Positions 18,260 through 19,270 of a stretch of DNA of 64,000 bases are shown one piece after another; positions within the stretch are counted from its first letter, which is position 1; each line of letters opens with the position of its first letter. The notes beneath the pieces are model-generated. The model searched no databases. It worked only from the letters and a program-made list of their open reading frames with translations, and was not told the origin of the DNA. Source of the stretch: an uncultured Gammaproteobacteria bacterium (lineage in GTDB: Bacteria > Patescibacteriota > Patescibacteriia > 2-12-FULL-60-25); contig CAZRJW010000002.1 of the NCBI GenBank assembly GCA_964600845.1, positions 9,910 to 73,909 of the forward strand. Direction: 5' to 3'. The position numbers and the translations under genes are program-made.

Positions 18260-19270
18260 AGTTCGCTCGAGAGGAGACGAGGACGATGGCGCTGAACAAT
18301 CTCGCACAGCGGTTCGTGGTGGCTAGTGTTGCTATCCCGGCGCTTCTGGGAGCGCTCTACTTCCGACAGGGGATCATCTGGTTCGTCCTCTGTCTGGTCT
18401 TCGCCCGTCTGGCGGCGAAAGAGTTCCTGGCGCTGGTCGCGCCAGACGAACCGGAGTCGACGGGCTACCACCCGCTGTTCTACCTCCTGTATGGAGGGGT
18501 GTTCGTCACACTCTTCCTGGCAGTGTCGCGGCACAGCCTGTTCGGCCTGCACTTCGAGGGGCTGCTCCCGCTGCTCTATGGCGGCCTGATCCTCGCGGTC
18601 GCAGTGCTCCTCTCCATCCTGATCTTCCCGCCCCTGCTCACACAGAAGCGGTTGAAGATCGGTGGCCTGGCGCTCGGGCCCTTCTACCTCGCGGGGCCCT
18701 TCGCTCTGCTCGCGCTCATTCGGCTGTACGGTACGTCGGCCGAGGGAGCGGGGCTCTGCATCTTCACGCTGTCAGTCGCCTGGCTCGGGGACTCGGTCGC
18801 CATGCTCTTCGGCAAGACGTTCGGCGGTCCGAAGCTCTACCCGACCGTCTCGCCGGGGAAGACCTGGAGCGGCGCCGTGGGCGGGCTCATCGGCTCGGCC
18901 TCGGTCGTGCTCTTCGCCAAGCTGCTCTTCCTGCCCAGCCTCCCGGTCGGGAAGGGGATCGCGCTCGCGCTCTTCGCCGGCGCCTTCGGGCAGCTCGGTG
19001 ACCTGTGCGAGTCAGTTCTCAAGCGTACGACCGGGGTCAAGGACTCGGGCAGCTCGCTGCCGGGCCATGGAGGCTTCCTCGACCGCGTCGATGCGCTCTT
19101 GTTCGTGACCCTGGTGGTCTTCGGCGCGCTCCAGTCGGGCTGGCTCGGTTTCTCGTTGCCGTCCACTCGTTAGCGCTGATCGACTACCGGAACAATCAAC
19201 CCACCTCTCCGGCCCTCGGCTGGAACGATGACGCACCTCTCGCTTCCGTTCCAACGAGGGCCGCGTCATA
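18260..19270. other. high-GC compositional island 2, inserted between rplA and rplK
   Basis: GC3-rich sequence. Multiple long overlapping ORFs in the track (18286..19173+, 18326..18589+, 18662..19108+, 18837..19166-, 19005..19454+). Confidence 0.7.
18286..19173 (+). CDS. cdsA: phosphatidate cytidylyltransferase (CDP-diglyceride synthase)
   Basis: Polytopic membrane protein with the CdsA signature [31 protein letters not shown] and [21 protein letters not shown]. SD-like gaggag 9 nt upstream of ATG. Confidence 0.85.
   Translation: [295 protein letters not shown]

Follow-up and report, generated by a model that had tools for sequence, protein, structure and literature searches.

A GC-rich cdsA of Myxococcota type between rplK and rplA in a bacterium of the Candidate Phyla Radiation: an old rather than a recent capture

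How did a GC-rich gene for CDP-diacylglycerol synthase, cdsA, come to lie antisense between the ribosomal-protein genes rplK and rplA, and when did it arrive? We investigated these questions in a 64,000-nt stretch of DNA (contig CAZRJW010000002.1, positions 9,910 to 73,909 of the forward strand; hereafter the window) whose native gene content resembles that of the Candidate Phyla Radiation (CPR). A first-pass annotation had proposed recent acquisition from a high-GC donor. The donor half of that proposal stands, with homologue labels and codon usage both pointing to a high-GC source of Myxococcota type, but the recency is contradicted by the synonymous divergence of cdsA and rplA and by sister lineages that carry the gene. 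The best explanation overall, to which we assign a probability of about 0.6, is an old capture of a Myxococcota-type cdsA that has been inherited vertically, is still ameliorating and was later lost from some relatives. Whether there was one capture or several, the gene is no recent arrival and, judged from its sequence, it is very probably both foreign and functional.

The order on the minus strand is secE (20384-20752), nusG (19806-20354), rplK and rplA, with cdsA between the last two on the opposite strand; the distance from the rplK stop to the rplA start is 1232 nt, in agreement with the 1.2 kb first described. The true rplA start is the ATG at 18097, which all relatives use. The features of the locus, compared where indicated with other carriers of cdsA (L097, L098 and L100) and with two relatives without it (L005 and L006), are:

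17390-18097, minus strand: rplA (uL1), native; PF00687 at E = 7e-58, TIGR01169 at 293 bits, GC content at third codon positions (GC3) 0.60
18107-18139, minus strand: rplA leader hairpin, GTGGGACUCCGCUCAAACGGAGGUUUGCACCAC, nearly invariant in the window, L097, L100, L005 and L006
18188-18160, minus strand: rplA promoter, sigma-70-type, TTGACA-17-TATTAT (11/12 consensus matches), ancestral and present in the non-carriers
18192-18220, plus strand: putative weak cdsA promoter, TTGCTC-17-CTTAAT, read from the sequence and below the promoter-scan threshold
18271-18276, plus strand: Shine-Dalgarno (SD) motif GAGGAG, 9 nt before the cdsA ATG, conserved in L097 and L098
18286-19173, plus strand: cdsA, phosphatidate cytidylyltransferase (CDP-diacylglycerol synthase), xenologous; PF01148, active-site residues, GC3 0.87
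19210-19264, plus strand: conserved 55-nt stem-loop, beginning 37 nt after the cdsA stop and part of the cdsA module
19281-19315, minus strand: rplK intrinsic terminator, a bidirectional hairpin with a 14-bp stem and then the T-run TTTTGTATTT on the minus strand
19330-19752, minus strand: rplK (uL11), native; PF03946 and PF00298, TIGR01632 at 193 bits
19806-20752, minus strand: nusG and secE, native, with a promoter at 20826-20799

The cdsA reading frame has 295 codons and matches PF01148 (CTP_transf_1) over its full length (172.3 bits against a cut-off of 24, E = 2.4e-50; residues 8-281 against profile positions 2-260 of 264), and the protein aligns with the Thermotoga maritima CdsA structures PDB 4Q2G/4Q2E (E = 7e-19). 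The active site of the Thermotoga enzyme consists of an Asp219/Asp249 Mg2+/K+ dyad, Glu222, Asp246, Asp144, Lys167 and Lys226 (PMC4083444). Mapped by alignment to 4Q2G (chain numbering +20), Asp144, Lys167, Asp219, Glu222, Lys226, Asp246 and Asp249 correspond to D169, K192, D239, E242, K246, D266 and D269 in the window, and all seven are invariant in the CPR and Myxococcota sequences compared. The complete CDP-diglyceride synthase signature reported at first reading is indeed present, matched by regular expression at residues 243-269 (S-x-[LIVMF]-K-R-x4-K-D-x-[GSA]-x2-[LIF]-[PGS]-x-H-G-G-x2-D-[RK]-x-[DN], the C-terminal signature of the CdsA family), and hydropathy indicates about nine hydrophobic segments. 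The protein thus resembles bacterial CdsA in its full-length domain, signature, active-site residues (the Asp-Asp dyad included) and hydrophobic segments, and differs in being about 48% identical at most to any sampled non-CPR protein, with a poorly conserved N-terminal half. One score counts against the assignment, 113.5 bits where the NCBIfam model PRK11624 has a cut-off of 385; the model is narrow and of enterobacterial type, so that the low score is no argument against family membership, and by the NCBI rule the protein is not an E. coli-type equivalog. Most likely it makes CDP-diacylglycerol from phosphatidate and CTP.

The exact 295-aa protein occurs on 17 contigs from unrelated runs and assemblers (Logan, NCBI and ENA), always with identical junctions, and the order rplA-cdsA-rplK-nusG-secE is found on every one of them that is long enough to show it. 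Four diverged variants have the same arrangement (L001 and L002 at 97% amino acid identity, L097 and L098 at about 93%). The host is CPR-like: its str, S10 and spc operons lack L30, S5 (38865-39674) being followed 12 nt on by L15 (39686-40153), and the window encodes a DUF4012 protein and other CPR-typical content. Brown and colleagues are said to have described the absence of L30 from the spc operon as a CPR trait in 2015. The closest properly named relative of rplA is from the Candidatus Uhrbacteria metagenome-assembled genome (MAG) nzgw360 (64% identity). The secE-nusG-rplK-rplA regions closest to the window are those of L005, L006 and L007 (CAZMOB01, CAYQAL01 and CAYTGF01; 66-86% identity by rplA), three GTDB-representative MAGs whose titles, 'uncultured Gammaproteobacteria', look wrong for the nearest kin of this CPR window.

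The composition of cdsA is sharply unlike that of its flanks, as first noticed. GC content climbs from about 0.50 in the flanks to 0.64-0.69 across the gene (0.66 for the gene itself), and its GC3 of 0.87 lies well above the mean of 54 native genes, 0.538 (sd 0.05; z = 6.6). Relative synonymous codon usage (RSCU) is only weakly correlated with that of native genes (r = 0.29) and strongly with that of genes on Myxococcota-type contigs (r = 0.83). The SD-like GAGGAG sets cdsA apart from native genes, as had also been claimed: an SD-like core of any kind precedes 1 of 35 of them. We conclude that cdsA is foreign because of its composition, its codon usage, its SD motif and homologues that are all Myxococcota-labelled.

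Two sets of side observations concern the same properties elsewhere in the window. CCTCC or TAACCTCC, which is the same as the usual anti-SD and not its complement, stands directly before the ATG of several native genes (e.g., 30530-30554, 33612-33636 and 37916-37940); by a rough estimate, CCTCC occurs in the 25 nt upstream of about 5 of 35 native starts, with about 0.7 expected. The window contains no 16S gene from which the host's own anti-SD could be read. Two further ORFs are rich in GC3 and have an AGGAGG SD motif. The ORF at 3780-4847 (plus strand) encodes a lipoprotein-like orphan of 355 aa (GC3 about 0.9; Myxococcota-like codon usage, r = 0.93), which has two homologues among 5.8 billion proteins, one near-identical and one 78% identical; with so few it gives no donor information, and a common donor for the other high-GC islands, looked for with this ORF alone of the three, found no support. 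The ORF at 60429-61166 (minus strand; GC3 0.76) has a C-terminal membrane segment and no match in Pfam or PHROG.

Every organism-named homologue of cdsA is labelled Myxococcaceae, Myxococcales, Polyangiaceae, Polyangiales, Sandaracinaceae, Kofleriaceae or 'Deltaproteobacteria'. The nearest relatives are in Myxococcota-labelled MAGs (P0002, 'Myxococcaceae bacterium'; the P0053 cluster, 'Myxococcales bacterium'; and others), which share the high GC3 and the codon usage (RSCU r = 0.83). The five top matches examined lie on contigs of 65-69% GC in a conserved PPIase-DnaJ-uppS-cdsA-gcvT neighbourhood, and the GC3 of donor-type cdsA, where contig DNA was retrievable, is 0.81-0.89. In these MAGs, unlike in the window, cdsA overlaps both uppS and gcvT, and no 3' stem-loop follows it; more generally, the window gene differs from those of ordinary bacteria in being unlinked to uppS/dxr/rseP and standing alone amid ribosomal-protein genes. 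The phylogeny was reconstructed by neighbor-joining (NJ) only, and in the midpoint-rooted tree the window clade falls inside the Myxococcota-labelled group, few of whose sequences are named, on a long branch. Myxococcota is reasonably indicated as the donor phylum. What speaks against a close match is identity: CdsA is about 43-52% identical to the Myxococcota-labelled clade and about 48% to its best non-self match, and because the latter is so low, the actual donor lineage is unsampled. A literature search on gene transfer between CPR bacteria and Myxococcota found nothing relevant.

We compared the locus with two sister genomes without cdsA, L005 and L006, whose rplK and rplA are 92-94% and 84-86% identical to those of the window. 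Both have rplK, a hairpin terminator of its own, about 190 bp, a promoter, a leader hairpin as in the window (GTGGGACTCCGCTCAMACGGAGGTTTGCACCAC) and then rplA. The promoter is TTGACA-17-TATTCT in L005, and L006 has TACTCT as its -10 element; the rplK terminator is in the same place as in the window with a different sequence. That rplK has its own terminator at 19281-19315 was correctly recognized at first reading, and in L097 the pairing is kept by a compensatory double change from CA/TG to TC/GA. The further idea that rplA would need a new promoter does not survive, since the two relatives without cdsA, each with its own rplK terminator, share the leader hairpin and the promoter found here at 18188-18160. 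Because the non-carriers hold the same promoter, leader and an rplK terminator of their own, rplK and rplA were already separate units, and the spacer is a harmless landing site in which cdsA, between terminator and promoter, disturbs nothing. The rplA leader hairpin, which has no Rfam match at E <= 1, may be an L1 autoregulatory site, placed directly before rplA and not before rplK.

The classic cluster of the E. coli type is secE-nusG-rplKAJL-rpoBC. The window retains secE-nusG-rplK ... rplA on one strand, but a terminator and a promoter divide rplK and rplA into two transcription units, as in relatives without the insert, and rplJ/rplL are missing downstream and rpmG/tRNA-Trp upstream; the absence of these genes had been noted from the start, and none is found in the whole 64-kb window. 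The near-universal adjacency of rplK and rplA, on which the first reading leaned, fails in this clade. In 80 related JGI metagenome loci (L103-L182; rplK 61-81% identical to the window's), the gap between the two genes is frequently 0.8-4 kb, or rplA lies beyond 5 kb (about a fifth of loci), and the gaps contain same-strand genes of native composition (a DUF5671 membrane protein, a GT4 glycosyltransferase, a 2-hydroxyacid dehydrogenase and hypotheticals). In the Uhrbacteria MAG L008 the gap measures 1.9 kb and contains two hypothetical ORFs, and L007 has rplA without rplK. The DUF5671 membrane protein recurs in the spacer of several CPR lineages. Some Parcubacteria lack L1 entirely.

Among the window, L001, L097 and L098, synonymous divergence (dS) is 0.07-0.24 for cdsA and 0.14-0.28 for rplA, and omega is 0.14-0.21. 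As cdsA dS tracks that of rplA and omega is low, we infer one insertion in the common ancestor, followed by vertical descent under purifying selection; that the capture predates this species group is close to certain. Third-position singletons in cdsA comprise 34 changes from G or C to A or T (S>W) and 6 in the opposite direction (W>S), compared with 25 and 15 in rplA. Per site, the cdsA singletons reflect the same mutational regime as those of rplA, with an implied equilibrium GC3 of about 0.56, and the gene is ameliorating slowly, its GC3 having gone from about 0.91 to 0.87-0.90 within the species group. Divergence between the window and L001 is patchy, with 100% identity in the cdsA flanks (18098-18285 and 19174-19280), a dS of 0.41 in nusG (window 19806-20354, L001 11520-12068) and of 0.07-0.17 in neighbouring genes, which suggests recombination between strains.

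The gene also extends beyond the species group. Two long-branch CdsA sequences, P0009 and P0032, adjoin the window clade in the NJ tree, and their contigs are CPR. At the same site as in the window, L100/L101 and L183 carry a GC3-rich cdsA convergent to rplK, and their rplK is 92-93% identical to the window's in amino acids and 86-88% in nucleotides; these hosts are as distant from the window as are the non-carriers L005 and L006, in which the syntenic site is an approximately 190-bp spacer without cdsA. A profile search for further CPR-borne lineages found only P0009 and P0032, the next match (P0135) being in Myxococcota-type synteny. CdsA of the two sister lineages is 46-48% identical to that of the window and between the two, with GC3 of 0.80 and 0.84, and CPR-borne CdsA is monophyletic with 73% NJ bootstrap support. 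An identity of 47% fits vertical descent, because native non-ribosomal proteins are only 55-70% identical between these hosts. The recent acquisition originally proposed is therefore refuted twice, by an insert older than the radiation of the species group (cdsA dS of 0.20-0.24 and rplA dS of 0.22-0.28, about 0.2 for both) and by a homologous module at the same site in two sister lineages.

That module includes more than the coding sequence. The 3' stem-loop (window: dG -32 kcal/mol, z = -5.3) is found in all three lineages, starting 36-44 nt after the cdsA stop; the copies of L100 and L183 are about 80% identical to it, with three compensatory pairs and 95% of cells paired. The window contains one copy, with none beside the other high-GC islands; the stem-loop is absent next to cdsA in Myxococcota-type contigs and has no Rfam match at E <= 1. 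The non-carrier L005 has a degenerate copy, syntenic and equally oriented, that scores 15.1 bits (E = 1e-4 over the spacer in question). In IMG/VR, 106 matches to a 15-mer of the stem-loop were dismissed as chance, the stem-loop model scoring 21.6 bits or less. On the 5' side, a GAATAGG motif is common to the three lineages, as is an AT-rich promoter architecture, TTGnnC-17-yyTAAT, which takes the form TTGACC-17-TCTAAT in L100 and L183. In L100 (679-1209, plus strand) and L101, another foreign ORF, orf176, lies between cdsA and the promoter of rplA; its GC3 is 0.92, it has a TTGACA-17-TATTTT promoter and a hairpin terminator to itself, and it matches nothing in Pfam or PHROG.

The insertion boundaries can be set no tighter than 18189-19280, non-carrier spacers being unalignable beyond promoter and terminator. 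The junctions show no target-site duplication and no direct or inverted repeats beyond chance, and no integrase or transposase is near cdsA or among the 63 window proteins scanned against Pfam, a set that leaves out the ribosomal-protein operon genes. Candidate vehicles were rejected. A large serine recombinase in L001 belongs to a different insertion, at tRNA-Pro. A phage origin has neither a CdsA relative in IMG/VR nor a PHROG match for cdsA or the other high-GC ORFs. Integron gene cassettes offer a likeness, a promoter-proximal foreign ORF followed by a conserved palindromic structure, with a second foreign ORF stacked at the site in L100, but the window has no integron integrase, attI, recognisable R''/R' core sites or attC array, and the stem-loop is single-copy. 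The 3' side of tRNA-Pro(GGG) (20886-20960) is itself a variable junction (20886-21556): the window has about 600 bp there with the orphan orf132 (21073-21471; GC3 0.78), and L001/L002, a 95%-identical strain, have a 5-kb element encoding the serine recombinase, a VanY peptidase and an M23 peptidase.

We propose that an Uhrbacteria-related CPR lineage captured a bacterial cdsA of Myxococcota type, which would have landed in a spacer flanked by two units that already stood apart, rplK having its own terminator and rplA its own promoter and leader. There it sits antisense to the ribosomal genes, with a canonical SD and probably a weak promoter of its own, and is followed by the conserved stem-loop. 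The stem-loop presumably acts as an insulator or marks the 3' end, and together with the bidirectional rplK terminator it would separate the convergent transcripts. Most parsimoniously, the capture would have taken place in an ancestor shared by three or more sister lineages of genus rank and would have involved a very GC-rich donor, the gene still ameliorating; L005, with its hairpin relic, and L006 would have lost cdsA later. We think a single capture for all three lineages somewhat probable.

Several observations weigh against it. Native genes of the hosts are saturated at four-fold sites (p4 0.65-0.73), yet the GC3 of cdsA is 0.80-0.90 in all three lineages. Given the measured rate of decay, a gene captured once and long ago would have had to arrive with a GC3 of about 0.95-1.0 or more, even by the slowest clock, that of ribosomal genes; such a value is only just reachable for the most GC-rich Myxococcota and is at the edge of plausibility. 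The four-fold divergence of cdsA between CPR lineages (p4 0.54-0.61) equals that between CPR and Myxococcota, and raw distances put each CPR CdsA closest to Myxococcota sequences, not to another CPR CdsA; long-branch attraction could account for the 73% NJ support. What chiefly lacks an explanation is the persistence of GC3.

The likeliest alternative is three independent and more recent captures at a hotspot, with a different high-GC cdsA each time and, in L100, orf176 as well, the inserts going in beside a stem-loop that the host already had and that flags the rplK-rplA site as recombination-prone or permissive. GC3 would then be un-ameliorated despite the synonymously saturated divergence of the hosts, and off equilibrium, as the S>W excess shows, and CdsA distances within CPR would be expected to match those to Myxococcota; the extra gene of L100 at the same site, the variable rplK-rplA spacer of related CPR, and L005, with a degenerate stem-loop and without cdsA, also suit this history. 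It requires, however, that the same gene family was inserted three times in the same orientation and at the same distance from the stem-loop, and it does not lead one to expect the GAATAGG motif and the AT-rich promoter architecture common to the lineages. The lack of an integrase, target-site duplication or inverted repeat, the single-copy stem-loop missing beside the other high-GC islands, and the monophyly of CPR-borne CdsA favored by NJ also speak against it. We regard three captures as possible but doubtful. A stronger form, in which the spacer is a dedicated capture site marked by the stem-loop, where genes of a high-GC, SD-using partner have been repeatedly installed (three cdsA alleles and orf176), is improbable. 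If it were true, the partner would be Myxococcota-like and possibly the physical host of these episymbionts, the islands would record host identity, other GC3-rich, SD-bearing orphan ORFs would come from the same source, and cdsA would be a host-matched lipid-salvage enzyme.

CPR genomes encode no complete lipid biosynthesis pathway, and the cells are thought to depend on others for membrane lipids (PMC7242380). In a cell without de novo lipid synthesis, CdsA would allow salvaged phospholipid to be re-headed or diversified. The suggestion that a foreign CdsA could matter for the use of host-derived phosphatidate is plausible in the light of an intact gene, and we draw the relevance to lipid metabolism from its being under purifying selection. 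Against it, none of the partner enzymes PgsA, PssA, PlsC and Cls is encoded in the 64-kb window, where the only lipid-related native genes seen are those for a UbiA-like protein and a DedA/VTT protein. A literature search for cdsA or CDP-diacylglycerol in CPR found nothing relevant. The gene might instead be a decaying passenger, or its enzyme might serve another cytidylyl transfer, for a glycolipid or isoprenoid-lipid precursor. Besides the missing partners and the general incompleteness of CPR lipid pathways, fast protein evolution (47% identity between sister lineages) and the UbiA-like prenyltransferase gene 4.7 kb from cdsA would suit this, and in E. coli CdsA has a part in making the glycolipid MPIase as well (PMC6362211). 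But the frame is full-length in all of more than 20 contigs and seven sequence variants, omega is low, the seven active-site residues are invariant across the three lineages, and the SD and 3' hairpin are conserved, so we consider a passenger or another role very unlikely. That assembly or binning wrongly joined a high-GC fragment to a CPR contig, as the sharp GC step at both cdsA ends might suggest, has a negligible probability: the chimera check raised at the outset is answered by the 17 independent contigs with shared junctions and context, by four variants in which cdsA and flanks diverge together, and by flanking non-coding sequence that is continuous and conserved.

Elsewhere in the window, the N-terminus of S5 (38865-39674, plus strand) is extended by about 110 residues with much Ala, Gly and Arg, giving a local GC peak, and a VirD4/TrwB-like coupling ATPase (41993-43405, plus strand) and a short pyrophosphatase-like ORF (41522-41908) lie inside the ribosomal super-operon, between secY and adk.

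The process at this locus is a known one, in which a metabolic gene is acquired horizontally and settles at a permissive place between genes, and we add a new example of it; what goes beyond routine is a compositional anomaly lasting far longer than expected and an implication for the lipid dependence of CPR bacteria. A strong GC3 anomaly is unsafe as a sign of recency, since this one persisted after a whole species group had radiated (dS about 0.2); if the capture was single, as we are inclined to believe, it probably outlived the split of three genus-level lineages too. Bacteria resembling Myxococcota are indicated as donors and as possible partners of these cells. For the question of how CPR bacteria process salvaged lipid, a foreign CdsA retained under purifying selection is a concrete and testable handle: it predicts that phosphatidate would be converted to CDP-diacylglycerol in these cells, so that a CDP-alcohol phosphatidyltransferase would also be expected.

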